A DNA stretch of 64,000 nt from Patescibacteria group bacterium (GTDB taxonomy: Bacteria > Patescibacteriota > Minisyncoccia > Phycocordibacterales > Phycocordibacteraceae): positions 5,363 to 69,362 of the forward strand of contig JBBTSZ010000004.1 of NCBI GenBank assembly GCA_038064495.1, given 5' to 3'. The notes below the pieces were generated by a model, which saw only the letters and a program-made list of their open reading frames with translations, was not told the origin of the DNA and ran no database searches. Below, one piece after another: positions 1,924 to 63,900 of this stretch. How positions within the stretch are numbered: position 1 is the first letter of the stretch; every line of letters starts with the position of its first letter. Position numbers and translations under genes: made by a program.

Positions 1924-2904
1924 ATGCCTCCTGAACAACCACAAGAAAATACCGCCTACGAACAACAGGAAGAAAGTTTGTGGAAAAAGCAGAAAATAGC
2001 GGTTGTGTGTGGGGCTCTCGCCACACTCGTGGTGCTTGCACTGTTTTTCTTCGAGTTCAAGTCACGCCTGATACTACCAGGTGACAACATTGTTATCTCA
2101 GCCGGTTACTTTCGAGTGAGTCCGTTGTATATCGTCAACAAAGCGACAACAACACCAGTGCTCGTCAGTTACGGTGGAGTCGAGAAGAAAGCATTTGATA
2201 TGCTTATACTCAGTGATGGCTCCAAACTTTATTCTCTTCGTGAAGAGAGTGATGTACCGTCTTTAAATATCTACCGGGTGGATATCGAAGGTACCGTTAC
2301 ACAATTAACAAACAGCCCGACAGTGAAATTCAATATTTCAGCAGATCCTTCCGAGACGCATATTATTTACGAAGAAATGGTTGCCAAAGACGACCTGGAG
2401 ATATCTACTACTTCTTCGTGGGATATACAGCAACTTGATTTAAACACGCGTGCTGTTGAGCACATAACAAGTGGCGTGCAACCACGATATATACGCTCAG
2501 GTGCTCTTTTGGTCGGTCAAAAGAATGGAGTAGTCCTCTACCACCCCGAGAATCAGTCACGCAAGAGTGCGAGTTCCACCCCGGTGCTTTCTTCCAAAGT
2601 ATATTCACTCTATGCGGTGAGCGCAGAGGGAGAACACGTCGCTGCCTACAACACCAAAACAGGCGCAGTAGATGTATTTGACGTTACGGTGGCAGGGACA
2701 CTTTCCTATGCTTACTCGAGCAAGCCTGAGCACCAACCCTCCAATATCAGCTTCAGTGACGGAGAGCCAGTCTCAGTAGAATCAACCCCGTCTCCTCGTG
2801 GAGTCGTGTATACGGTAACCCGCTATAGCGTAAGCCGTACCGAATGGAACATTACTGGTCCGCAAGGACTTATAGCCCAGCGACTCATATATGCATCACA
2901 TTAA
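1924..2904 (+). CDS. Single-pass membrane protein with predicted beta-rich (TolB/PD40-like) ectodomain, paralog 1
   Basis: Short charged N-terminus then TM IAVVCGALATLVVLALFFF; remainder beta-strand-rich; paralog of 4780..5733; stop overlaps start of next gene by 14 nt. Confidence 0.6.
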   Translation: MPPEQPQENTAYEQQEESLWKKQKIAVVCGALATLVVLALFFFEFKSRLILPGDNIVISAGYFRVSPLYIVNKATTTPVLVSYGGVEKKAFDMLILSDGSKLYSLREESDVPSLNIYRVDIEGTVTQLTNSPTVKFNISADPSETHIIYEEMVAKDDLEISTTSSWDIQQLDLNTRAVEHITSGVQPRYIRSGALLVGQKNGVVLYHPENQSRKSASSTPVLSSKVYSLYAVSAEGEHVAAYNTKTGAVDVFDVTVAGTLSYAYSSKPEHQPSNISFSDGEPVSVESTPSPRGVVYTVTRYSVSRTEWNITGPQGLIAQRLIYASH

Positions 2905-4714
2905 AAGACCACTCTTTTTCATAAGTTTTATTCTCCTCGTTACTGCGCCGGGGCAGGCGTATGCGTTTTCCTACACCCAAGTACACACACTGTGGCAGGA
3001 CCCCGCCTACGTTTCAAACAATGCTCCAGACTACCTTGGTCCAACCTTCCCAGGATGGGGCTTGTTTCCTTTTTTCGCTGACCCGGTAGGACCTTTAGGG
3101 ACATATCCGACCTATGAAGCTATGTGTGACTCGTTTGCCACGGCGCAAGGCTACACGAACACCACTGACTTTTATTGTGTCTACGATGCTCAAATGAGTA
3201 GTTCTAGTTTCGGAACACCGTGTTTTGGCACTGCATGCTCACCGGGCGTAGGAACCATCAACATTTACAATGGCTTTGTTAAATTGTATACAAATCCACC
3301 GACACAGACATCCTATGCAACAATCAGTGCACAGCTTACTGCTCTCTGGACCACGTGGCTTAGCAATGTAGGTCTTGGCATACTCCCGAATCCGCTCCCA
3401 ACCAACCCAGACGTCTGTGACCGGTCAGAAGTATTTAGTGGTCTTATACCGCCGCTTGGATTCAACCCTCCTAACTCAATTCCATTCTACGACAGGTGCA
3501 ATATTTATCATCATGTAGGAATGCCTTCGAGTGTACCCAGTGCTTCGCTTTCCGCTACACCCCCAACAGTAACAGCAGGAAGTAGTGCATTGCTTACGTA
3601 CACCTGTAGTAATGGCGCCACCTCAGCAACCATTGATAATGGTGTCGGGTCAGTTACTCCCGCGGCAGGAGGGAGTGTGCCGGTGACACCAGGCTCTACC
3701 ACCACCTATAGCCTTGTTTGTACAAACGCAAATGGCGCAAGTGTTCCAGCCGTTACAACCGTAACGGTTATCCCTCTCCCAACGCTGCCGGACTTGACTA
3801 CCGGAGCTATCTCACCAACCACTGCAACCGCAGGGCAGTCCACGAGTCTTTCCGCGCCGGTATCAAACACGGGTAATGGGGCAACTGGAGTAGTCTTTAC
3901 TGACCTGTTCCAAAGCGCCACTGACTCATCGGGTAGTAACGCAACCGATATCGGTACGTATCCGAGTATTGCACTCCCTGCAAGCATTGGTAACCTCGCA
4001 CTCCTTTCCTATACCTTCCCGACGGCAGGAACCTACTACCTTCGTGCGTGTGCTGACAAATCATCTAGTGGAAGCCCCGGAGTTATTTCTGAGTCTAATG
4101 CCCTTGGTACCGCAGAAACCAACAACTGTGGCCCATGGACAGCCGTTACGGTTGCTTCTGCGGGAGTACCGAGTGTTTCCTGCACCCCCTCAAATGCAAA
4201 CCCACCAGTTGGCGGAACCGTCATCTATACCGCAACAGTCGGTGGAGGAGCGGGAGCGCCCTTTACGTGGAATCCGTCACTTCCATCAGCTTGTACTGCA
4301 AGTACGGGAAGTACCATCTCGTGTACCTTCACGACGGCAGGCCTCTACGCTATGAATGTGTCTGCTACAGGAGTCGCAGGCTCAGTACCATGTTCTCCAA
4401 ATCCTATTCAAGTTGGTGCCCCATCGTGTGCGGTGCCAGCGAATGCAACACTGACGCCAAGTATGAATCGTGTTCGACAGGGAACCGGCACGACCATTAG
4501 TTACAACGTCACTGGTGGCATCAACACCTCGTGCACTATCACGGGTCCCGGAGCTCCCGGCACCATCAACGCAAATGCCTGTGCCCTGAATCCATCATCA
4601 GGTTCCTTCTCAACTGGACCACTGAATTCACAAGCTACCTACATCATTAGGTGTGACGGCACCGAGCTCTCTCGCACTATCGTGAATATCATTCCGAACT
4701 TCAAAGAGTTCTAG
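2891..4714 (+). CDS. Secreted Cys/Thr-rich surface protein, paralog B (Ig-like repeat + CARDB-like domain + conserved C-terminal module)
   Basis: Signal peptide (…LLVTAPGQAYA); CARDB-like hallmark DLTTGAISPT…ESNALGTAETNNCGPWTAVTV; last about 310 aa about 70-80% identical to the 5726 protein; ends TIVNIIPNFKEF. Confidence 0.8.
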   Translation: MHHIKRPLFFISFILLVTAPGQAYAFSYTQVHTLWQDPAYVSNNAPDYLGPTFPGWGLFPFFADPVGPLGTYPTYEAMCDSFATAQGYTNTTDFYCVYDAQMSSSSFGTPCFGTACSPGVGTINIYNGFVKLYTNPPTQTSYATISAQLTALWTTWLSNVGLGILPNPLPTNPDVCDRSEVFSGLIPPLGFNPPNSIPFYDRCNIYHHVGMPSSVPSASLSATPPTVTAGSSALLTYTCSNGATSATIDNGVGSVTPAAGGSVPVTPGSTTTYSLVCTNANGASVPAVTTVTVIPLPTLPDLTTGAISPTTATAGQSTSLSAPVSNTGNGATGVVFTDLFQSATDSSGSNATDIGTYPSIALPASIGNLALLSYTFPTAGTYYLRACADKSSSGSPGVISESNALGTAETNNCGPWTAVTVASAGVPSVSCTPSNANPPVGGTVIYTATVGGGAGAPFTWNPSLPSACTASTGSTISCTFTTAGLYAMNVSATGVAGSVPCSPNPIQVGAPSCAVPANATLTPSMNRVRQGTGTTISYNVTGGINTSCTITGPGAPGTINANACALNPSSGSFSTGPLNSQATYIIRCDGTELSRTIVNIIPNFKEF

Positions 4715-4779: not shown

Positions 4780-5733
4780 ATGCCTCCGATACAAAGCATC
4801 CCGGGAATGCCAGCGACCCCATCTTTTACAAATCACCCCAGACACTGGAATAAAAAGATATGGGCACTCGTCTTTGGTGCGATAGCTACTGTTGTAGTAC
4901 TTACGATGTTTTTCCTTGAATGGAAATCAGGACGCCTCCACTTCTCCGAACCAACAATCCTGCTAAGTCCGTCGGAAGCGCCTTTGTTTCAGGCTCTCAC
5001 CATCAATTTAGGTGGAAAAACGACCTCGCCAATTTTGGTAGAAGGCCTTGGTACCGCAGTCGTTACTGATATGGCTCCAAACAAACAGAGAAACTATTAC
5101 TTGATAGCAAACCAATCACTCACTGAATCAAATCTTTATTCTTCAGATTCCCATAACCCGCAAGCAGGCCTGAGTCAGAGAACGTTCTCGCACACCACCA
5201 AATTCAGTCTCTCGTATGACCCGCAATCAGGCGCAGTCGCGTATGTATCGAAAAAGGGTAGTGAACCTGGCGTAATAACGCTTCTCCTGCAGGGCACGAC
5301 AACAGAGAAGTTGCTGGGAGAGGGATCTAATCCAGAGTTTCTGAAAGGAGGATTTTTTGTAACGTATCAAAAAGGTAACGAAGTCCTTTCAGTAAACGTG
5401 CACACAAAAGAGACACACACCCTGTTTACTATTCCCGAGGGAGGCACGTATGCTGTAGACGGAGAAGGACTGCGAGCAGTTGTGTATGATCCGACAACAC
5501 GCACTCTCCAGTATTTCTCACTTGAGGGCATGACATCTGCAAGCTTTACGACGTTTAAGAAAGAAGAAGGAGTAGCTATCCAGAGACGTATTCTAGGAAT
5601 TTCTGGAGACACGCTTGCAAGTCTTATTCAAGCCGAGGAAGGTATCTCTATTACCCTTGGGAAAGACAAACCAGTCTTCTTCGGAGGTGTTACAGCACAC
5701 GAACACTCACGACTGACCATCTATCATGACTAA
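4780..5733 (+). CDS. Single-pass membrane protein with predicted beta-rich ectodomain, paralog 2
   Basis: Same architecture as 1924..2904 (N-terminal tail, TM IWALVFGAIATVVVLTMFFLEW, beta-rich ectodomain); N-terminal regions align; stop overlaps next gene start by 8 nt (ATGACTAA). Confidence 0.6.
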   Translation: MPPIQSIPGMPATPSFTNHPRHWNKKIWALVFGAIATVVVLTMFFLEWKSGRLHFSEPTILLSPSEAPLFQALTINLGGKTTSPILVEGLGTAVVTDMAPNKQRNYYLIANQSLTESNLYSSDSHNPQAGLSQRTFSHTTKFSLSYDPQSGAVAYVSKKGSEPGVITLLLQGTTTEKLLGEGSNPEFLKGGFFVTYQKGNEVLSVNVHTKETHTLFTIPEGGTYAVDGEGLRAVVYDPTTRTLQYFSLEGMTSASFTTFKKEEGVAIQRRILGISGDTLASLIQAEEGISITLGKDKPVFFGGVTAHEHSRLTIYHD

Positions 5734-8116
5734 TACTTCACAACTTCCCGTACTCGGTTTACTTACTTCGGCTGTGGTGATAGGTATATCGTTGTTTGCA
5801 TCGCATGCTGTATACGCGCAAACATACACAGCCGGTTCTTGTGGTGCGACAATAGTATCGAGCATAAATGCTTTTGACTGTAGCTCAAACTATTTGACGT
5901 GTGCGCCTGACCAATTAGGACAAGATCGCATACCTGCAACTAAATTACGAGAGTGTCCCGCGGGAAGCGGCGATTTCTATCTAATTGATCAGCCAGGAAG
6001 ATGTATTGCTGATCCTGTATGCGCCTTCGGAGCACCGTCTGCAAGCATAACTGCGAATCCGGCCTCTATTGTGCGTGGGAATAGCAGTGCTGTTTCCTGG
6101 AGCTCAGCAAATACAACCTCGTGTACGAGTACCAGCTTCTCCACTGGTAATGCTACGAGCGGCACGATAGCGGTATCGCCCACACAAACGACAAGCTACG
6201 ACGTTACCTGTACGGGTCCCGGCGGTTCAACGGGTATAAAAACTGTCACTGTCACCGTCACCGCTCCCGTGTTTGATGCTAGTTGTTCAGTTAATCCAAC
6301 GTCTGCACAAATTGGAGAGACGGTTACGTGGAGTGCCAGCGCATGGAATGGAACCGCACCTTATACATTTTCTTGGATTGGACAAATTATAGAAGGACTC
6401 ACAGGATCCAGTGCATCTGTGTCCTATTCAACTTCAGGTGTAAAGACAGGATCGATACAGGTAACAGACTCAACATCTAATGGAACAAGTGTCAGTCTAA
6501 CCAATAACGACAACAAAATTTGTACGGGACCTGTAATTGCATCAAACATTACGCCCGGACTTCAAGAAGACGGAGGAACACAGTCGGCTATGCAAAATGA
6601 GGCGTACTCCTTTACTAGAGGAGGTTTTCGTGGAGGTATTGGTATCTTCTATGACCAATCATACAGTGCCACCTATGCTACAGTTAAGGCAAATCCTCAG
6701 AACTACTGTATAGATGTAAAACTCTCACAACGGTGTAATCCTCCTCCTGGTTGGGAAGGTTGTAATTGGAGTTTCGATATAGATATTCACCAAGGAACGG
6801 GTCTACGAGACCCTCAAGCGAGCGATCAAGGTCCGTATGTACCGAATCAAAACGGATTTGGTACTTGGAATCAAGCGCGTTTCTTTGGTGCAGTACTTGG
6901 AACACCAGTCTCAGGAGCTCAGACAATTAACCGTTCCTGTGTAAACTCAGTTACCGTTGCCGCCGCCGCAACAACAGCAAATCTTTCTGCAAATCCTATC
7001 TCCATTACGCAAGGCAACTCCTCAACGCTTACATGGTCATCCACAAATGCCACATCCTGTACGAGTCCTGACTTCAATACCGGTGGAGCAGTCTCGGGAA
7101 GTATTTCCGTAAGTCCCTCAGCTGACACTATGTACACAGTAGACTGCACTGGTTCTGGTGCTCCTGCATCAAGTTCGGTAACGGTATCAGTCACCGCGGC
7201 TCAATCTGATCTAACTGCTGCAGCGGTTTCTCCTGCCAGTGCAATAGCCGGTACGCTCGTTACACTTTCAGCACTTGTTTCTAATTCTGGAGTTGCAGGA
7301 ACTGGAGTAGGTTTCACAGACCTGTTTCAGCGGGCCACAGACTCCTCTGGTAGTAACGCGACTGACATTGGTACCTATGCGAATACGGCACTCGCCTCTA
7401 GTGGAAATACAAGTGCAACCATGAATTACTCCTTCCCATCAGCAGGCACCTGGTATGTGCGTGCTTGTGCCGATAAAGCTTCAGCTGGCGACAGCGGCGC
7501 CATCAACGAATCAAATGAAGGAAATAACTGCGGTCCCTGGACCGCCATCACGGTTGCTGCTGCAGGAGTGCCTGCGGTTTCTTGCACCCCTTCAAACGCA
7601 AATCCTCCCGTCGGTGGAACCGTCACGTATACGGCAACCCCAAGTGGTGGGGCGGGAGCACCATTCACGTGGAATCCATCACTCCCGTCTGCCTGTACAC
7701 CAAGTACCTCAAGCACGATTTCCTGTACCTTCACAATCGCAGGCCAGTACGCTATGAATGTGTCTGCTACAGGGGTCGCCGGCTCCGTACCATGCTCACC
7801 GAATCCTATCCAAGTGGGTGCTGCGGCTTGTGGTGTTCCTGCCAGCGCAACCCTGACTCCGGTTAACAACCGTGTTCGTAAGGGCACTGGAACCAGCATC
7901 AATTACAACGTGACTGGTGGCATCAACACCTCCTGTACTATCATGGGTCCAGGAGCTCCAGGCACCATCAGTGCAAACGCCTGTACTCTCAATCCATCTT
8001 CAGGCTCTTTCTCCACCGGCAATCTCTCTGCACAAGCAACCTACATCATTACGTGTGATGGTGTTGAACTCAAACGTACGGTGGTGAACATCATTCCGAA
8101 CTTTGTTGAGTATTAA
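5726..8116 (+). CDS. Secreted Cys/Thr-rich surface protein, paralog C (two Ig-like repeats, CARDB-like domain, conserved C-terminal module)
   Basis: Signal peptide (…ISLFASHAVYA); two repeats SASITANPASI…/ANLSANPISI…; CARDB-like DLTAAAVSPA…ESNEGNNCGPWTAITV; C-terminal module shared with 2891 protein; ends TVVNIIPNFVEY. Confidence 0.8.
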   Translation: MTNTSQLPVLGLLTSAVVIGISLFASHAVYAQTYTAGSCGATIVSSINAFDCSSNYLTCAPDQLGQDRIPATKLRECPAGSGDFYLIDQPGRCIADPVCAFGAPSASITANPASIVRGNSSAVSWSSANTTSCTSTSFSTGNATSGTIAVSPTQTTSYDVTCTGPGGSTGIKTVTVTVTAPVFDASCSVNPTSAQIGETVTWSASAWNGTAPYTFSWIGQIIEGLTGSSASVSYSTSGVKTGSIQVTDSTSNGTSVSLTNNDNKICTGPVIASNITPGLQEDGGTQSAMQNEAYSFTRGGFRGGIGIFYDQSYSATYATVKANPQNYCIDVKLSQRCNPPPGWEGCNWSFDIDIHQGTGLRDPQASDQGPYVPNQNGFGTWNQARFFGAVLGTPVSGAQTINRSCVNSVTVAAAATTANLSANPISITQGNSSTLTWSSTNATSCTSPDFNTGGAVSGSISVSPSADTMYTVDCTGSGAPASSSVTVSVTAAQSDLTAAAVSPASAIAGTLVTLSALVSNSGVAGTGVGFTDLFQRATDSSGSNATDIGTYANTALASSGNTSATMNYSFPSAGTWYVRACADKASAGDSGAINESNEGNNCGPWTAITVAAAGVPAVSCTPSNANPPVGGTVTYTATPSGGAGAPFTWNPSLPSACTPSTSSTISCTFTIAGQYAMNVSATGVAGSVPCSPNPIQVGAAACGVPASATLTPVNNRVRKGTGTSINYNVTGGINTSCTIMGPGAPGTISANACTLNPSSGSFSTGNLSAQATYIITCDGVELKRTVVNIIPNFVEY

Positions 8117-22896: not shown

Positions 22897-22930
22897 TAGG
22901 CCGGCTCGTGAGAGCCGGCCTATTTCATTT
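22897..22930. terminator. Bidirectional rho-independent terminator between convergent genes
   Basis: taGGCCGGCTC-gtga-GAGCCGGCCta followed by TTTCATTT. Confidence 0.6.
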
Positions 22931-24173
22931 ATATAACCTTTGTTTTAGGGAGGGGAAGTATGAATTTTCCTTTGTAGCCGAGTTTCTTCATGAGAGCAAC
23001 GAGCTCTGTGCCAATGTGCCAGGAGAGTACGAGTGCGTACTCTGGTTGCTCAGCGAATAGTCGGGATTCGTCAACCACTGGAACGTGCGTACCTGGCGTA
23101 TACATACCAATCTTTGGTGAGCCCTTTTTTTCACACGCATAGTCAAGTATGGAATCATCGATATTGCAGAAACCAAGCAGAGTATTTGAGCGAGCTGAGC
23201 TGGTAAGGCCCACAATCCGCTTACCACTTTTCTTCAACGCAAGAAGGGTCGATACCAGGTCATACTTTGCCTGGTATACCTTTTTAGAAAATGCGAGTAA
23301 CTTTTTCTCGTCATTGATACCTGCCGTTGTCTCACGTGCAAGCAATTTCTTTGCACGGGCGCTCATCGGATGCGTACCTTTCTTTGCATAGACACGTATT
23401 GAACCACCTGCCGCAGAGATATGTTCTGCATCAATAACGGAAAGCCCATGTTTGTTGAGTAAGTAGGTAATTGTTTTTAACGAGTAAAAGCGAAGATGTT
23501 CGTGATAGACCGTATCAAACTCAAGTTTTTCGACGATGTCCATAAGATACTGGGACTCAGACACGAAAACACTTTTTGGACCCATGAGACTTTTCACATT
23601 CTGTACCAGAGAGGCAGTATCGTTGATGTGAGCAAACACATTTGTTGCTGTCACCACTTTTGCCGTGCCGTATTTCTTCTTGATTTTCTTCACGGTACTG
23701 CTGCTGAAATATTCCTGATAGGTAGGAATACCATTTTTGTTCGCACTCTTCGCAGCGTCCGTTGGTTCAACGCCAACAACACGTGCACCACGGGCTTTGA
23801 ACGGTTTCAGGAGTGTGCCGTCATTTGAACCAATATCAACAACGAGCCCGCCCGCCGTGTATGCTTTCTCATCTTCAAGTCCTCCGGCAAGTGATTCAAA
23901 GTTTCGAATTAGCATGTTCGTAAGTCCGGTGCGATAGGGGTATTGTCGCGGAAAGACCTTTCTTGGATCCACGATGTAACTAAGTTGTACGAGCCCGCAT
24001 TTCCTACAGCGCACGAGTTCGAGTGGATACGTTTCTTCAAGACCTGAAAGGTCGGCTTTTGTAAGATATTCCTGAACAATAGGTTGATGGCCAAGTGAGA
24101 GAATGGATATAAGGCGTGAACTACTGCAGACTTGGCACGTCGTAACGGGGCCAATATGAAGGGGTTTTTTCAT
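22929..24173 (-). CDS. NDP-hexose C-methyltransferase-like (N-terminal Zn-ribbon + class I SAM MTase; TylCIII family-like)
   Basis: CQVCSS…CRKCGL zinc ribbon; SAM motif GLVVDIGSNDGTLL; 414 aa. Confidence 0.55.
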   Translation of the reverse strand: MKKPLHIGPVTTCQVCSSSRLISILSLGHQPIVQEYLTKADLSGLEETYPLELVRCRKCGLVQLSYIVDPRKVFPRQYPYRTGLTNMLIRNFESLAGGLEDEKAYTAGGLVVDIGSNDGTLLKPFKARGARVVGVEPTDAAKSANKNGIPTYQEYFSSSTVKKIKKKYGTAKVVTATNVFAHINDTASLVQNVKSLMGPKSVFVSESQYLMDIVEKLEFDTVYHEHLRFYSLKTITYLLNKHGLSVIDAEHISAAGGSIRVYAKKGTHPMSARAKKLLARETTAGINDEKKLLAFSKKVYQAKYDLVSTLLALKKSGKRIVGLTSSARSNTLLGFCNIDDSILDYACEKKGSPKIGMYTPGTHVPVVDESRLFAEQPEYALVLSWHIGTELVALMKKLGYKGKFILPLPKTKVI

Positions 24174-56426: not shown

Positions 56427-56552
56427 ATGGCAGCAAAGAAGAAGGCCGCAAAGAAGACGACTAAGCGCAAAGCCGCAAAGAAGACAACTAAGAAGGCCGC
56501 AAAGAAGACCACGAAGAAGGCAGCAAAGCGCAAGACCGCAAAGCGCAAATAG
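56427..56552 (+). CDS. 41 aa Lys/Ala-rich basic repeat protein (histone H1/Hc1-like nucleoid protein candidate)
   Basis: MAAKKKAAKKTTKRKAAKKTTKKAAKKTTKKAAKRKTAKRK; built from 24-27 nt tandem DNA repeats; AT-rich upstream region with 12-bp palindrome ATTGCGCGCAAT (56325-56336); hairpin terminator downstream. Confidence 0.45.
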   Translation: MAAKKKAAKKTTKRKAAKKTTKKAAKKTTKKAAKRKTAKRK

Positions 56553-59283: not shown

Positions 59284-59826
59284 ATGAAAGACGTTGTCTT
59301 TATTACGGGCAATGAGCGGAAAGCGGATTATCTAGCCCAGTATCTCGGGATACCAGTTGAACACGTGAAGATGGAGCTCGACGAGATACAGTCACTCGAT
59401 TTCACGGAAGTAGTCCGTCACAAAGTCCGGCAAGCTTATATACGGGTTGATCGACCCGTTCTTGTTGAAGATTCCGGACTAGAGTTCGCTAGTTTCGGTC
59501 GGCTTCCTGGCACATTTAGCAAATCTTTCATTCACGAGATCGGCCTTGAAGCCATGTGTCGACTGGTAGATGGTAGAGACCGATCGGCCACCGTTCGATG
59601 CGTTTTCGGATATTTTGACGGTGAACACGAGGCATATTTCGAGGGTAGTATGTCGGGAACTATTGCAGAGCACCCTGTCGGGAAATCTGGTTTTGGGTTC
59701 GATACTATCTTTATACCAGAAGGGTATAAGGTAACTCGTGCTGAACTTTCTGAAGACGACGACCGAAAGACGTACCTTCGTATTAAGCCGTTTGAACAAG
59801 TAAAGGAGTTTCTGCTCTCCAGGTGA
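59284..59826 (+). CDS. rdgB: Non-canonical purine NTP pyrophosphatase (RdgB/HAM1 family)
   Basis: VVFITGNERKADYL; FGFDTIFIPEG; 180 aa; ORF-track 5' extension overlapping secA rejected. Confidence 0.65.
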   Translation: MKDVVFITGNERKADYLAQYLGIPVEHVKMELDEIQSLDFTEVVRHKVRQAYIRVDRPVLVEDSGLEFASFGRLPGTFSKSFIHEIGLEAMCRLVDGRDRSATVRCVFGYFDGEHEAYFEGSMSGTIAEHPVGKSGFGFDTIFIPEGYKVTRAELSEDDDRKTYLRIKPFEQVKEFLLSR

Positions 59827-59856
59827 TTTCTAGCGACTTGTGATAGGGTGGGCTAT

Positions 59857-60831
59857 ATGGCACTGATAGACCACCTCATACTCCATGCAACAGCCGGTCG
59901 CGGTGGCGACGGTGTGGTGCGCTGGCTTCATATTAAAGGAAAAGAAAAAGGAGGACCTGCTGGTGGCGATGGAGGGAAGGGTGGTGACATCATTCTTGAA
60001 GGAGTACAGGACTTAGGCGCACTCGCTCAGTATCGCTACAGCAAGAAGTTTCGTGCAGAGCACGGTTTTCCCGGAGAGAACAACAACCGCCATGGCGCTG
60101 ACGGAAAACCGGTCGTCATTAAAGTTCCGGTGGGAACGGTTATTAAGAACGCGACTACCAAAGAAACAGTTGAGATTCTTGCTGAAGGTCAGCGCGAAAC
60201 AATCTTTAAAGGTGGAGCAGGTGGGAAAGGGAACGCTCACTACAAAAGCTCTATAAATCAGAATCCAACCGAGTCTTCACCTGGTAAAAATGGAGGGGCT
60301 GGGGATATCGATTTAAGCCTCAAACTCATCGCTGACGTGGGGTTTATCGGCTTCCCGAACGCAGGGAAGTCATCTCTTTTGAATGAATTGACCCATGCAA
60401 AGTCCAAAGTCGCTTCCTATGCCTTCACCACACTTGATCCTCACCTCGGCAACTTTTACGGCTTCATCCTTGCAGACATCCCAGGACTCATTGAAGGTGC
60501 ATCGTCAGGGAAAGGTCTTGGTTCTCGTTTCCTCAAACACATAGAACGTACTAAGTTTCTTGTACATCTCGTCTCGGCTGAACAAGATAAGCCTGCAGAG
60601 GCCTATAGTGCAATACGAAACGAGCTAGCAAGCTTCGGTCGTGGACTTGCGGAAAAGCCGGAACTCGTACTCCTTTCCAAAACGGATATGCTTACTCCCG
60701 AAGAGCTCAAAAAGACCCTTAAGGAACTTGAAGTGGTCACCAAGGTCCCGGTATTGCCACTTTCCATTTTAGAACCGGCGCTCGTAAAATCAGTCTCCGA
60801 CAGACTCGCGAAAGAGCTCAAAACGACCTAA
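59857..60831 (+). CDS. obg: GTPase Obg (N-terminal Obg fold + G domain, no C-terminal extension)
   Basis: Gly-rich Obg fold GRGGDGVVRW…GGPAGGDGGKGGDIILE; G1 GFPNAGKSSLLN; G3 DIPGLIEGAS. Confidence 0.8.
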   Translation: MALIDHLILHATAGRGGDGVVRWLHIKGKEKGGPAGGDGGKGGDIILEGVQDLGALAQYRYSKKFRAEHGFPGENNNRHGADGKPVVIKVPVGTVIKNATTKETVEILAEGQRETIFKGGAGGKGNAHYKSSINQNPTESSPGKNGGAGDIDLSLKLIADVGFIGFPNAGKSSLLNELTHAKSKVASYAFTTLDPHLGNFYGFILADIPGLIEGASSGKGLGSRFLKHIERTKFLVHLVSAEQDKPAEAYSAIRNELASFGRGLAEKPELVLLSKTDMLTPEELKKTLKELEVVTKVPVLPLSILEPALVKSVSDRLAKELKTT

Positions 60832-60900
60832 GTACCGCTTGCGAACCAAGCAGTCTCCATGCAAGATAGAGGTAATGGGAGCGACTAAACGAAAACGAGT

Positions 60901-62145
60901 ATGAGATACGTGACCCTACTTCTTGGCTTCCTTCTTCTGGCTCCTCAAGCACACGCTGCACGAATTTTCCAGACGGGGGCTGAACTTAATAGTACGACCG
61001 CAGGTATGGAAGTGACTTCGGTTGATGGCACGGGAGCAAGCGTAAGCTCAACGAACGTACGCTCTGGTAACTACGTCTGGCGCTCTAACAACAGTGGAAA
61101 TACGAGCGGCATCACACAACGTCTCTCAGGAAACGATGTTTTTACACCTGGTTATCTTCGCGTCTATTTTTACTTCGCCACACTACCCAGTGTGAAGCAA
61201 CGCATCATGCAGTTCAATACCGCAGCTAACCTGCTGTCAGCAAGAGTAGACATATATACCGATGGAAAACTTGTTCTCATGAACTCATCAAGCGTGGCGA
61301 TAGGTACTTCAACTCTTGCACTCCAAACTAACAGGTGGTATCGGCTGGAACTTAAAGATGACCCGACGTTGAACCCAGGAAAACTTGAGCTGAGGGTAGA
61401 CGGCGTCACCGTCGTTAAAGGAGACAGTGATTCACAAGCAGGTTGGGCACGTGTGCGTGTGGGACCAAACTTGAATAACAGCGTCACGGACGTGTACTAC
61501 GACGATATTGCGGTAAACACGAGTTCCGGTACGAGCCAAAACTCATGGCCGGGGGACGGTAAGCTCGTACTCCTTTCGCCAAATGCGGCTGGAGACTCAA
61601 ATCAGTGGCTGGATACGGTGGGAGGAGCTGGTACTACCAATAACTATACGTTGGTTGATGAAATACCACCCAACAACGCTACTGACTTTGTGAACTCCGG
61701 AACACTCAACGATACGGACTGGTACGGCATTTCTCCAATGTCGGCAGTGAGACGTATTAACGTGGTGAGTGTGCATGGTAGGCTCACGAACAATACAGCC
61801 GACGCGACCACAGCAGCAAAATGGCAGATACAGAAGATATCAGGAGGCACGGTCTCCCAAGGAACAGCAGTTATTCCGAACTCAACGACGTGGTGTACGG
61901 ACGGTAACAGCACAACCATTTGGCAGAATATTCTGACACTTTACAACGACCCCGATGGGCAGCCATGGACGTGGCAAACACTACAGACAGCACAAATAGG
62001 TCCTAAGATAACTGCTTCAAACGCGAACCGTATTCAAGTATCCTCTATGTGGGTGTATGTGGATTACTCAGACTTGTCGAGCGGCGTGTATATCCAAACA
62101 AAAGGTCTCTTCCAACTCCTTAAAGGGCTGTTCGTAATACTATAA
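60901..62145 (+). CDS. Secreted lectin-like protein (concanavalin/LamG-like jelly-roll predicted), hypothetical
   Basis: Signal peptide MRYVTLLLGFLLLAPQAHAA; two beta-rich domains; many N-x-S/T; lies between the obg direct repeats. Confidence 0.55.
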   Translation: MRYVTLLLGFLLLAPQAHAARIFQTGAELNSTTAGMEVTSVDGTGASVSSTNVRSGNYVWRSNNSGNTSGITQRLSGNDVFTPGYLRVYFYFATLPSVKQRIMQFNTAANLLSARVDIYTDGKLVLMNSSSVAIGTSTLALQTNRWYRLELKDDPTLNPGKLELRVDGVTVVKGDSDSQAGWARVRVGPNLNNSVTDVYYDDIAVNTSSGTSQNSWPGDGKLVLLSPNAAGDSNQWLDTVGGAGTTNNYTLVDEIPPNNATDFVNSGTLNDTDWYGISPMSAVRRINVVSVHGRLTNNTADATTAAKWQIQKISGGTVSQGTAVIPNSTTWCTDGNSTTIWQNILTLYNDPDGQPWTWQTLQTAQIGPKITASNANRIQVSSMWVYVDYSDLSSGVYIQTKGLFQLLKGLFVIL

Positions 62146-62192
62146 GCAATCCAAACAATGCGGCGCACTGGAGCTTAGGTGACGCAAAGGGG

Positions 62193-62490
62193 TCATCCTT
62201 GCAGACATCCCAGGACTCATTGAAGGTGCATCGTCAGGGAAAGGTCTTGGTTCTCGTTTCCTCAAACACATAGAACGTACTAAGTTTCTTGTACATCTCG
62301 TCTCGGCTGAACAAGATAAGCCTGCAGAGGCCTATAGTGCAATACGAAACGAGCTAGCCACCTTCGGCCGTGGACTCTCAGAAAAGCCACAAACCATCTT
62401 CGTAAAAATAAGTCTCCGACAACCTCGCGAAAGAGCTCAAAACGACCTAAGTACCGCTTGCGAACCAAGCAGTCTCCATGCAAGATGGAG
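62193..62490 (+). pseudogene. Degenerate partial duplicate of obg 3' end plus obg-gatB intergenic region (direct repeat of about 60463-60870)
   Basis: About 166 nt identical to 60463-60629, then diverged/deleted segment, then about 77 nt matching 60791-60868. Confidence 0.75.
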
Positions 62491-62493
62491 GCA

Positions 62494-63900
62494 ATGAGGG
62501 AGTATCGTCCAACTATCGGTCTTGAGGTGCATGCGGAACTTTCTACGCGTACCAAGATGTTTTGCGATTCAGCAAACGACTCTGAAGAAACTGAGCCGAA
62601 CGTGAATGTCTGTCCAGTGTGTCTCGCGCACCCAGGAACGCTTCCCGTGATAAACAAGCAGGCAGTTGCGCACGTGCTTCGTGTTGGCACAGCACTCGGG
62701 AGTACACTCGCAGACTACACTGAGTTCGATCGCAAGTCCTATTTTTATCCGGACATACCGAAGGGCTATCAAATTAGTCAGTATGAACATCCACTCGTTT
62801 CTGGTGGTGAATTGAATGGTGTTGCTGTCACGCGAGTGCATCTTGAAGAAGATACCGCACGCTCTTCGCACGCGAATGACGTAAGTCTTGTTGATTTCAA
62901 TCGTGCAGGTGTGCCACTCATGGAGCTGGTGACGGAACCGGTGATTCATGACGCGAAGACTGCAGGCGCGTTTGCTCGCGAACTCCAGCTTTTGCTTCGT
63001 GCGCTTGGTGCATCACATGCAAATCTTGAGAAGGGAGAGATGCGCGTGGAAGCAAACATTTCTGTGTCAAAAACAGATTCTTTCGGAACAAAAGTAGAAG
63101 TAAAGAATCTCAATTCATTCCGCTCGGTAGAGCGCGCCATTGAGTATGAGATAGCTCGGCAGACAGAGCTCCTTGAATCAGGAGGCACCGTGACCCAAGA
63201 AACTAGAGGGTGGGACGAGAATAAAATGGAGACATTCCCGCAGCGACTCAAGGAGGGAAGTGCCGATTACCGCTATTTCCCTGAGCCAGATTTACCAAAG
63301 CTCGTACTCTCTGACCTTGAAGAATTCAAGAAATCGGTTCTTGAAGAGAGTCTCCCTGAACTGCCTCACGCGCGCAGAACACGCTACGTATTACGGGGAC
63401 TCAAACCAGAAGAGGCGAGTCTCATCACGAGCTCGCTCGAACAGAGCGCATTCTTTGACGAGGTAGTAGCTACACTTGGAGCAGACAGTGAGTCCGTTCG
63501 CTTAGCCACAAATTATTTGCTCAACGACCTTGGAGACGGCCCGCTGCCGAAGGCCAGTGCGTTCTGTGAGCTTATAGAGCTTATACGCAGCAATAAGCTT
63601 TCTTCTCGCGGCGCCAAGGATACGCTCGCAATTCTCGCCGAAACCACTGCACCATCTGCGCTTGCTGTTGCAACTGAGCATGGCTGGCTTCAGGAAAGTA
63701 ATCCTGAGGCCATCCGGGAGGTAGTACGGGGTGTCGTAGCGGCAAACGCGTCCGTGATCGAAGAATACCGGGGAGGAAAGCAAAGTGTCCTGCAATTCCT
63801 GGTCGGACAGGGCATGAAATTGAGTCGTGGAGCGGGCAATCCTGAGGTCCTCAAGAAGTTGCTTATCGAGGAGCTGGGAATACTACCGCCGAAAGAATAA
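62494..63900 (+). CDS. gatB: Asp-tRNA(Asn)/Glu-tRNA(Gln) amidotransferase subunit B
   Basis: YRPTIGLEVHAELSTRTKMFC; VCLAHPGTLPVIN; 468 aa from ATG 62494; ORF-track start 62458 reads through obg remnant. Confidence 0.85.
   Translation: MREYRPTIGLEVHAELSTRTKMFCDSANDSEETEPNVNVCPVCLAHPGTLPVINKQAVAHVLRVGTALGSTLADYTEFDRKSYFYPDIPKGYQISQYEHPLVSGGELNGVAVTRVHLEEDTARSSHANDVSLVDFNRAGVPLMELVTEPVIHDAKTAGAFARELQLLLRALGASHANLEKGEMRVEANISVSKTDSFGTKVEVKNLNSFRSVERAIEYEIARQTELLESGGTVTQETRGWDENKMETFPQRLKEGSADYRYFPEPDLPKLVLSDLEEFKKSVLEESLPELPHARRTRYVLRGLKPEEASLITSSLEQSAFFDEVVATLGADSESVRLATNYLLNDLGDGPLPKASAFCELIELIRSNKLSSRGAKDTLAILAETTAPSALAVATEHGWLQESNPEAIREVVRGVVAANASVIEEYRGGKQSVLQFLVGQGMKLSRGAGNPEVLKKLLIEELGILPPKE

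Follow-up and report, generated by a model that had tools for sequence, protein, structure and literature searches.

How did a gene for an exported, lectin-like protein come to sit between two housekeeping genes, obg and gatB, with a piece of host DNA duplicated on both sides of it? This question is posed by a 64,000-nucleotide stretch of the Patescibacteria contig JBBTSZ010000004.1 (the whole stretch is referred to hereafter as the window, and its host is labelled Paceibacteria in our analysis), in which an open reading frame (ORF) of 414 amino acids, gene X (60901..62145, plus strand), occupies the space between two copies of a repeat. We hold, with a probability of roughly 0.7, that X is a phage gene captured within a duplication of host DNA. 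A 1.27-kb piece of a tailed phage, consisting of the last six codons of a tail-fibre gene and the complete X, would have been inserted at the very start of gatB, and the same event would have duplicated ~414 bp of host DNA (the 3′ end of obg, the spacer and the start of gatB). The same capture would have taken place separately in a second Paceibacteria genome.

The two genes that flank X are both intact. Upstream lies obg (GTPase Obg; 59848..60831, plus strand, stop codon TAA at 60829–31, start placed at 59857 in the NCBI record), which matches the Pfam families GTP1_OBG (2e-44) and MMR_HSR1 and whose product is 74–81% identical to the Obg of the closest relatives; downstream lies gatB (aspartyl/glutamyl-tRNA amidotransferase subunit B; 62494..63900, plus strand; GatB_N, 2e-104, and GatB_Yqey). 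A repeat search and a MAFFT alignment place repeat copy 1 at 60464..60877 and copy 2 at 62193..62496 (both plus strand), within 1–10 nt of where the original prediction had put them. The duplicated unit of ~414 bp comprises the last 368 nt of obg, the 43-nt obg–gatB spacer and an ATG, which is 60875 in copy 1 and the true gatB start, 62494, in copy 2. The obg part of copy 1 is the functional 3′ end of the gene, and where relatives are conserved copy 1 retains the conserved state; the obg part of copy 2 is closed upstream by a TGA (62180–82), has no start codon, is frameshifted by the loss of 110 nt corresponding to 60676–60785, and is a decaying pseudogene fragment. Between the phage-derived DNA described below and copy 2 stands a junction filler (62159..62192), for which neither obg, nor the phages, nor the junction of the second genome gave a significant match.

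Identity between the two copies is strikingly uneven. The first 196 nt (60464–60659 versus 62193–62388) are 97% identical and begin with a run of 166 nt (60464–60629 = 62193–62358) that is 100% identical, with zero mismatches; a diverged patch of ~46 nt follows (62359–62404, roughly 67% identical), and beyond the deletion the copies are again 95% identical (87/92; 60786–60877 versus 62405–62496). At several sites copy 2 has the state of the relatives and copy 1 is altered (for example the first ATG at 60868, and the ...GLSEKP... codons), and the duplication is therefore not brand new. Because a mismatch-free run of 166 nt is very improbable at the overall mismatch rate of 6.6% (P ~1e-5), we read it as a probable gene-conversion tract, by which the first part of the dead fragment would recently have been homogenised with obg.

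Comparison with related genomes establishes that X is a derived insertion at this position, as had been proposed. We compared ~155 related loci, made up of 80 species-representative genomes, 72 metagenome loci and the three closest Obg relatives, L156–L158 (the Obg-seeded scans gave 80 species-representative genomes and 80 metagenome loci, and 72 of the latter hold both obg and gatB; L-numbers denote compared loci or contigs). The order secA–obg–gatB is kept, with gatB directly after obg, in nearly all of them; the obg–gatB gap has a median of 36 nt among the 72 metagenome loci and measures 37–46 nt in L156–L158 (Obg 79–81% identical), which lack X. None of the ~155 carries X at the obg–gatB boundary, and a single further contig, L001, from a more distant relative, has it at the same site; the relatives thus do not all share the arrangement, which was the comparison of gene order suggested at the outset. 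A strain-level relative with an empty site was not found in the protein collection, where the next-best Obg is 81% identical.

A perfect repeat of 166 nt can mislead short-read assemblers, and the phasing of the two spacer variants depends on a 64-nt identical stretch, which makes it necessary to consider that a chimeric join at the 166-nt identity put phage or episomal DNA into a chromosomal contig. We find this hardly credible. The independent Logan unitig L155 (run ERR3858120) is identical to window 60838–62222, shows X flanked by the copy 1 spacer variant and, at its opposite end, by obg-like sequence, and ends where the 31-mers become common to both copies; the repeat is therefore present in the raw reads. 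The same arrangement stands in four long contigs on record, and the five contigs on record that carry the window's Obg all belong to the same set as the contigs carrying X. Furthermore, X is intact and under purifying selection (dN/dS, the ratio of nonsynonymous to synonymous divergence, is ~0.09 against the L001 copy), and L001, which comes from another sample and another species, has the same integrated architecture with repeats too diverged to cause misassembly.

The source of X is a tailed phage. The phage-derived segment of the window (60886..62158, plus strand) spans the 3′ tip of a tail-fibre gene, X itself, and ~13 nt beyond X, and by blastn is 74% identical to the phage contig L002 over its full length and, at 60887–62138, 80% identical to the insert of L001. 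At the protein level, X is 85% identical to the L001 copy (P0002) and 81, 78 and 67% identical to its counterparts in three phage lineages (P0003 of L153, P0004 of L002 and P0005 of L003–6, respectively; P-numbers denote X-family proteins). In all three lineages X overlaps, by an ATGA, the stop codon of a large Peptidase_S74 tail-fibre gene; lysis-type genes (PG_binding_1 or SLT domains) lie 3′ of X in L002 and L003–6, in L003 they have PHROG hits to an XhlA-like protein and an endolysin, and L002 also encodes the small and large terminase subunits. X matches phrog_14065 (E 8.9e-47, residues 20–396 on profile positions 2–387), has relatives in 66 IMG/VR viral loci, and corresponds to a family that forms the N-terminal 390 residues of the 1110-residue "minor tail proteins" of Streptomyces phages (32% identity to gp13 of phage Hiyaa).

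The direction of transfer is fixed, as we read the left junctions, by what remains of the neighbouring phage gene. The last six tail-fibre codons are retained upstream of X in the window, and the C-terminal residues they and their equivalents specify can be compared directly before the stop codon (phage tail fibre ...LTFKLKRV; window ...TKRKRV; L001 ...LTFLKRKQT). As remnants of the 3′ end of the tail-fibre gene precede X in both hosts, the gene passed from phage to host. The suggestion that X arose purely by local duplication and divergence is rejected. Composition was of no use as a mark of foreign origin, since the GC content, the GC content at third codon positions and the codon usage of X are all host-like, which fits a phage of the same host group. 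A second ORF of 414 amino acids in the window (22929–24173) was considered as a paralogue of X and rejected, being a C-methyltransferase with no similarity to it.

We then have to explain why two host genomes carry the gene at the same place. L001 shows the order secA–obg–X–gatB, as in the window, and has its own flanking duplication (5592–5941 versus 7357–7696, 69.5% over 354 nt), the repeats having decayed to 67–89% identity. One explanation is a single ancient insertion in the common ancestor of the two, inherited vertically and lost precisely in the intervening lineages by recombination between the repeats, with gene conversion keeping the repeats alike within each genome. The equal site and overall architecture of the two genomes are as this predicts, flanking repeats would ease precise loss, and a 75-nt in-frame deletion could turn the L001 type of leader (see below) into that of the window. 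The divergence of the genes involved nevertheless makes it decidedly improbable. When the window is compared with L001, the synonymous sites of secA, obg and gatB have reached saturation (third-position identity 35–40%, amino-acid identity 62–79%), whereas X, in spite of its ordinary codon usage, has a synonymous divergence (dS) of ~1.0, a third-position identity of 60% and an amino-acid identity of 85%; because of this contrast X is shown, on the measure of synonymous divergence, to be younger than the host split. A tree built from SecA, Obg and GatB places the window with L073, L074, L075 and L156, all of them without X, and L001 outside this group; X-less genomes lie inside the smallest clade containing window and L001 in 200/200 bootstraps, so that at least these four are nested between the carriers. 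The X of L001 is, moreover, nearer to a phage copy than to that of the window (86.7% to P0003 versus 84.8%).

The repeats and junctions are likewise specific to each genome. Copy 2 of either genome matches only the obg of that genome. The duplicated segment of one is ~66% identical to that of the other, which does not exceed the value for the remainder of obg, whereas X reaches 81%; X therefore moved without the host segment. At the left junction, copy 1 of the window stops at gatB codon 1–3 and is followed by ~18 nt of retained tail-fibre DNA, while that of L001 runs through gatB codon 14, with ~40–60 nt of tail-fibre DNA kept. A shared right junction suggested by MAFFT was rejected on local alignment against shuffled sequences (z ≤ 1.1). 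Taken together, the tree, the dS contrast, the proximity to P0003, the own-host repeats and the differing left junctions lead us to reject simple vertical inheritance, and indicate, as judged by sequence comparison, that one and the same phage gene was inserted here on two occasions, with sequence of the respective host duplicated each time. This capture in a second lineage goes beyond the original prediction, as do the source of X beside a phage tail-fibre gene and lysis module and the extent of the repeat, which reaches the gatB start with its promoter-like element.

The architecture of the locus constrains how such an insertion could have arisen. It had been argued that the repeats are too long for a transposon target duplication, and this stands: we rejected a transposon or insertion-sequence origin since ~414 bp is far above the 2–15 bp of target-site duplications, and no terminal inverted repeats at the ends of the insert and no transposase ORF were found by repeat search, ORF list or Pfam. 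A hairpin in the spacer was also considered as a recombination site and rejected, its folding energies being no better than those of shuffled sequences (copy 2 stands out only weakly, z = −2.4) and a common structure failing to emerge. We favor a one-step duplication in which phage DNA was captured at the joint. Two illegitimate joins would be needed, one between the 5′ end of gatB and the 3′ tip of the tail-fibre gene and the other between the 3′ end of X and obg nucleotide 617; both could have formed in the replicating chromosome, by template switching or by unequal joining of sister chromatids, with phage DNA caught at the duplication joint. Such an event would resemble a tandem duplication with foreign filler DNA at its joint, in that a single event accounts for the whole, the insert lies at the joint behind a duplicated promoter, and all of the original genes survive; it differs in that a phage gene as filler has rarely been documented in bacteria, and in that the reuse of one site is left unexplained.

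The original prediction had put forward Campbell-type integration, in which a circle carrying X together with an obg-3′/spacer/gatB-5′ fragment enters by a single homologous crossover (the repeats of which could later re-excise the cassette). Several features fit it: direct host repeats flank the cargo exactly as a single crossover predicts, in the window and in L001, the 166 nt of perfect identity remain as a recombination substrate, and targeting by homology would explain the use of the same site in two lineages. The donor that it calls for is the part that did not materialize, there being no obg or gatB match, in DNA or protein, in L002 (examined over positions 2677–29532, that is 26.9 of 29.5 kb or 91%), L003–L006, L153, L160, L161 or the 66 IMG/VR loci. 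The repeats are of own-host type and more diverged between the genomes than X, so that a circle would have to have taken up the same host segment twice, and the same two illegitimate joins as in direct capture are required plus a recombination step. Relative to the established forms of Campbell-type integration (insertion–duplication of suicide vectors, and transducing phages entering via a carried bacterial segment), the locus agrees in its direct host repeats of a few hundred bp, its intact target genes and the scope for excision or gene conversion; it departs from them in that the cargo amounts to one gene, taken from the interior of a phage genome, that the repeat ends within the first codons of gatB, in frame with the phage codons, and that no circular donor was found. 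The architecture fits direct capture and circle-first integration equally, and the available evidence does not separate them; we regard the circle as a possible though doubtful route, and of the alternatives the one we would least readily set aside.

A further alternative is that X is the remnant of a temperate phage which integrated site-specifically at the obg/gatB boundary, bringing its own obg 3′ end, and then lost everything else by deletion. Phage 21 and the element e14 of Escherichia coli integrate in this manner at icd, each bringing a replacement 3′ end for the gene. The resemblance is that phage DNA stands between an intact gene and a displaced, decaying copy of that gene's 3′ end; here, unlike at icd, no integrase, attachment core or phage-borne obg copy was found, one gene is left, and the duplication takes in the promoter and start of the next gene. 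The placement of intact and dead ends, the phage nature of the cargo, the shared site in two hosts and a literature that suggests lysogeny to be common among Patescibacteria phages (PMC12911398) would all accord with a remnant. Against these, the window region has no integrase and a single ORF between the repeats, no integrase Pfam family was seen on the called genes in the examined 91% of the L002 contig, the phage contigs lack obg-like DNA, and each genome's copies resemble each other rather than those of the other genome. In the phage, X has its place in the interior of the genome, with tail-fibre genes on one side and lysis genes on the other, and not next to an attachment site; two precise deletions would therefore be required as well in each of two lineages. 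A site-specific prophage remnant is thus less likely, and we consider it unlikely on the whole.

Several points weigh against capture within a duplication. The mechanism is read from the end product alone, no donor intermediate, circle or empty-site allele having been seen, and no microhomology is legible at the junctions. The tree of X is weakly resolved, with the two host copies appearing as sisters in 57/200 bootstraps, which leaves room for a host-to-host transfer of X alone. Two events at one site argue for a targeting that the one-step model does not supply. Selection for a joint placed just 3′ of a duplicated, constitutive and leaderless promoter would narrow the choice of site, hardly to a single one.

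Of the loci compared, 14 have an enlarged obg–gatB gap, and a flanking duplication is seen only in the two carriers of X and in L116. In L116 (6975–7262), obg and a normal spacer are followed by a 13-codon copy of the gatB start (MNKYAPTIGLEIH), ~200 nt of GC-rich DNA with a perfect hairpin, and then the real gatB; its breakpoint lies within 3 nt of that of L001 (codon 14), and L116 may be the scar of a similar event. The ~200-nt residue was examined as a possible remnant of X or of a phage and rejected, having no similarity to either.

We next consider how both X and gatB could be expressed from the rearranged locus. The ORF track had opened gatB at 62458, which the original prediction correctly took for an artefact: relatives begin at the position of ATG 62494 (or at 62485, the start in the NCBI record), and ATG 62494 opens MREYRPTIGLEVH, a normal GatB N-terminus that aligns with those of relatives. 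TTG 62458 is instead the first base of a −35-like hexamer, part of a promoter-like element of gatB (TTGCGA–17 nt–CAAGAT; 62458..62486, plus strand) that recurs in copy 1 (60839..60867, plus strand), where it ends 7 nt 5′ of ATG 60875. The TTGCGA/CAAGAT motif is found with equal spacing in L156, L157, L158, L074, L075 and L001, and a TAnnnT hexamer ends 6–9 nt 5′ of the gatB ATG in 48/76 relatives, whereas other positions give about one each. On this evidence gatB would be transcribed from a promoter of its own across the group, and, given the usual distance between a −10 hexamer and the transcription start, its mRNA would have little or no leader. A scan for consensus sigma-70 promoters did not flag the element, which speaks against the assignment; the case for a promoter was built on the positional conservation of the motif, not on the consensus scan.

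In copy 1, the duplicated gatB ATG is in frame with the last tail-fibre codons and opens a leader ORF of nine codons (MGATKRKRV and stop; 60875..60904, plus strand), whose TGA overlaps the ATG of X as ATGA. L001 has a 34-codon version of this leader, likewise in frame and with the same ATGA overlap with the start of X; no ribosome-binding sequence can clearly be made out for X itself. The promoter-like element of the left copy would drive the leader ORF, and X would be translated by stop–start coupling as in the phage; the right copy would keep gatB expressed. An in-frame leader in both genomes, together with purifying selection on X, argues that the arrangement is in use.

The product of X had been predicted to be a secreted, β-rich, lectin-like protein with a signal peptide, and at the level of the fold this is supported. 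Its N-terminus is a classic Sec signal peptide (MRYVTLLLGFLLLAPQAHA followed by ARIFQ; codons 1–19, nt 60901–60957), with a type-I cleavage site between AHA and ARIFQ and no lipobox cysteine. The AlphaFold2 model (49 homologues, mean confidence score pLDDT 89) is almost entirely β-strand and comprises two β-sandwich (jelly-roll) domains and a short C-terminal helix. Foldseek against the PDB returned matches of probability 1.0 to the Hc-N domain of neurotoxins and to the lectin domains of trans-sialidase and galactocerebrosidase, each spanning one domain only (TM score ~0.3 over the whole query), and against BFVD the whole of X matches uncharacterised or "virion structural" proteins of cultured phages (TM score 0.6–0.72). 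X itself reaches no Pfam family above threshold (the best is TcfC, E 0.06, 13.4 bits versus a cut-off of 29.4); the distant family members P0055 and P0060 reach PF13385, Laminin_G_3, with 31.9 and 52.6 bits against a cut-off of 27.6. The models therefore support a LamG/ConA-like jelly-roll protein at fold level, for which carbohydrate binding is putative.

The clade formed by the two host and three phage copies has gained both the N-terminal Sec signal peptide and the short C-terminal helix, and homologues without these additions begin MARLW..., exactly at the predicted mature end of X. The signal peptide argues, as far as its sequence is a guide, for export rather than for assembly into virions in the cytoplasm. 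Our best guess, which is speculation guided by the model, places mature X at or outside the cell surface, where it would bind a glycan or a receptor. By analogy it could cover the receptor used by the donor phage family (superinfection exclusion), so that a host keeping the gene might be less open to infection by these phages, or it could act as an adhesin, for instance in attachment to partner cells; this is again speculation. The small lipoproteins Llp of phage T5 and Cor of T1 and φ80 mask phage receptors and are encoded beside receptor-binding genes. X is comparable in that, in three phage lineages, it is an exported product encoded directly after the tail-fibre gene; it differs in its size of 414 amino acids, its type-I signal peptide, and a family that is otherwise virion-associated. 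Three observations count against a role of this kind: X has no match among the PADLOC defence models, it is not a lipoprotein, unlike the known receptor-masking proteins, and its homologues without a signal peptide look like virion parts. Patescibacteria phages have been described as carrying "auxiliary" genes of ConA-like lectin/glucanase type, for which a role at the host cell surface, in adhesion, was speculated (PMC12911398; PMC11310336). The likeness lies in LamG/ConA-fold genes borne by phages of this phylum; these reports concern phage-borne genes only, whereas here the gene is fixed in two host chromosomes, with its junctions, expression context and selection documented.

Three further observations concern the phages and the X family. 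The C-termini of the Peptidase_S74 tail fibres (L002 5882–6004, and the equivalents in L153 and L004) have a Trp-rich stretch, a hydrophobic helix and a basic tail (ending ...NNWQWRVIGFLVLMICFLVLWNLYLTFKLKRV), which by sequence looks like a membrane anchor placed after the chaperone domain; together with the signal peptide of X, this putative anchor points to membrane-associated steps for these proteins. A 24-kb contig of a Saccharimonadales metagenome-assembled genome (L163) has at its end (520–1725) an X-family member that is 40% identical and lacks a signal peptide; it lies ~1.5 kb from a gene for a P-type cation ATPase and could be a further host-resident copy or the edge of a prophage. 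A 468-kb ENA contig (L162; 286204–308228, GC 58%) contains a related phage structural module running from terminase through tail genes (44% identity in a 670-residue protein), situated between genes for an Mrr-type nuclease and a TIR-domain protein. Neither lysis nor early genes are seen in the part in view, and the module may belong to a prophage or represent a domesticated particle cluster. It was considered as a clue to an attachment site and set aside, since X is absent from it and neither obg nor gatB lies close by.

What the locus shows is the capture of a phage gene by a bacterial host, accompanied by a duplication that is unusual yet can be explained; the most intriguing point is that this recurred at one site. 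It offers a clean and datable case of a streamlined symbiont fixing a phage gene inside an essential cluster without breaking that cluster, the duplication presumably equipping X and the displaced gatB alike with signals for expression. The identity of 67–87% between host and phage copies of X ties uncultivated tailed phages (contigs of ~20–30 kb) to Paceibacteria, and such links are rare; that X arrived twice at one site, each time with a separate duplication, hints at a preference for that site or at a mechanism. Should X mask a receptor or mediate attachment, it would bear on how episymbionts manage their cell surface and their phages. A bolder reading, which we offer tentatively and with the odds set clearly against it, is that the obg–gatB boundary of Paceibacteria is a preferred landing site for repeated capture of tailed-phage genes, the duplication lending the leaderless promoter and start of gatB, and that the captured lectin-like protein is a superinfection-exclusion or surface-remodelling factor turned to defence or adhesion. 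If true, phage genes would be domesticated by a targeted route in tiny-genome bacteria, and uncultivated phages would be tied to their Patescibacteria hosts directly by sequence.

Other insertions are found at the same boundary. About 7% of the related genomes have other obg–gatB insertions (L134, L112, L133, L142, L120, L127, L190, L211, L222, L231 and L234), with no flanking duplications. That of L134 (6227–8260) encodes a 677-residue signal-peptide protein with three Laminin_G_3 domains, and so is another secreted LamG protein at the obg–gatB junction; L133 has a 2-hydroxyacid dehydrogenase and L142 four genes. Small coiled-coil ORFs before gatB in L112 and L120 are homologous to one another (E ~1e-6) and were considered as derivatives of the phage XhlA-like protein, which was rejected on a similarity to the phage that is marginal (E 0.007 in a tiny database).

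On the other side of obg, the window has a Ham1/ITPase-family gene (59287–59826) between secA and obg, with no flanking repeat seen, and a Ham1 match at this place in 0 of the ~155 related loci. In the closest relatives the secA–obg gap is empty (L156, L073) or holds a Trp-repressor-like gene (L157) or a serine hydrolase (L158), and this gap therefore also turns over genes. Elsewhere in the window, a direct repeat of 300 nt (4121–4420 versus 7523–7822, 79% identical) lies inside the neighbouring large ORFs 2891–4714 and 5726–8116, which are probably paralogues, and just 5′ of secA (56434–56516) three tandem copies of a motif, 24–27 nt apart, are predicted to encode Lys/Ala-rich repeats.

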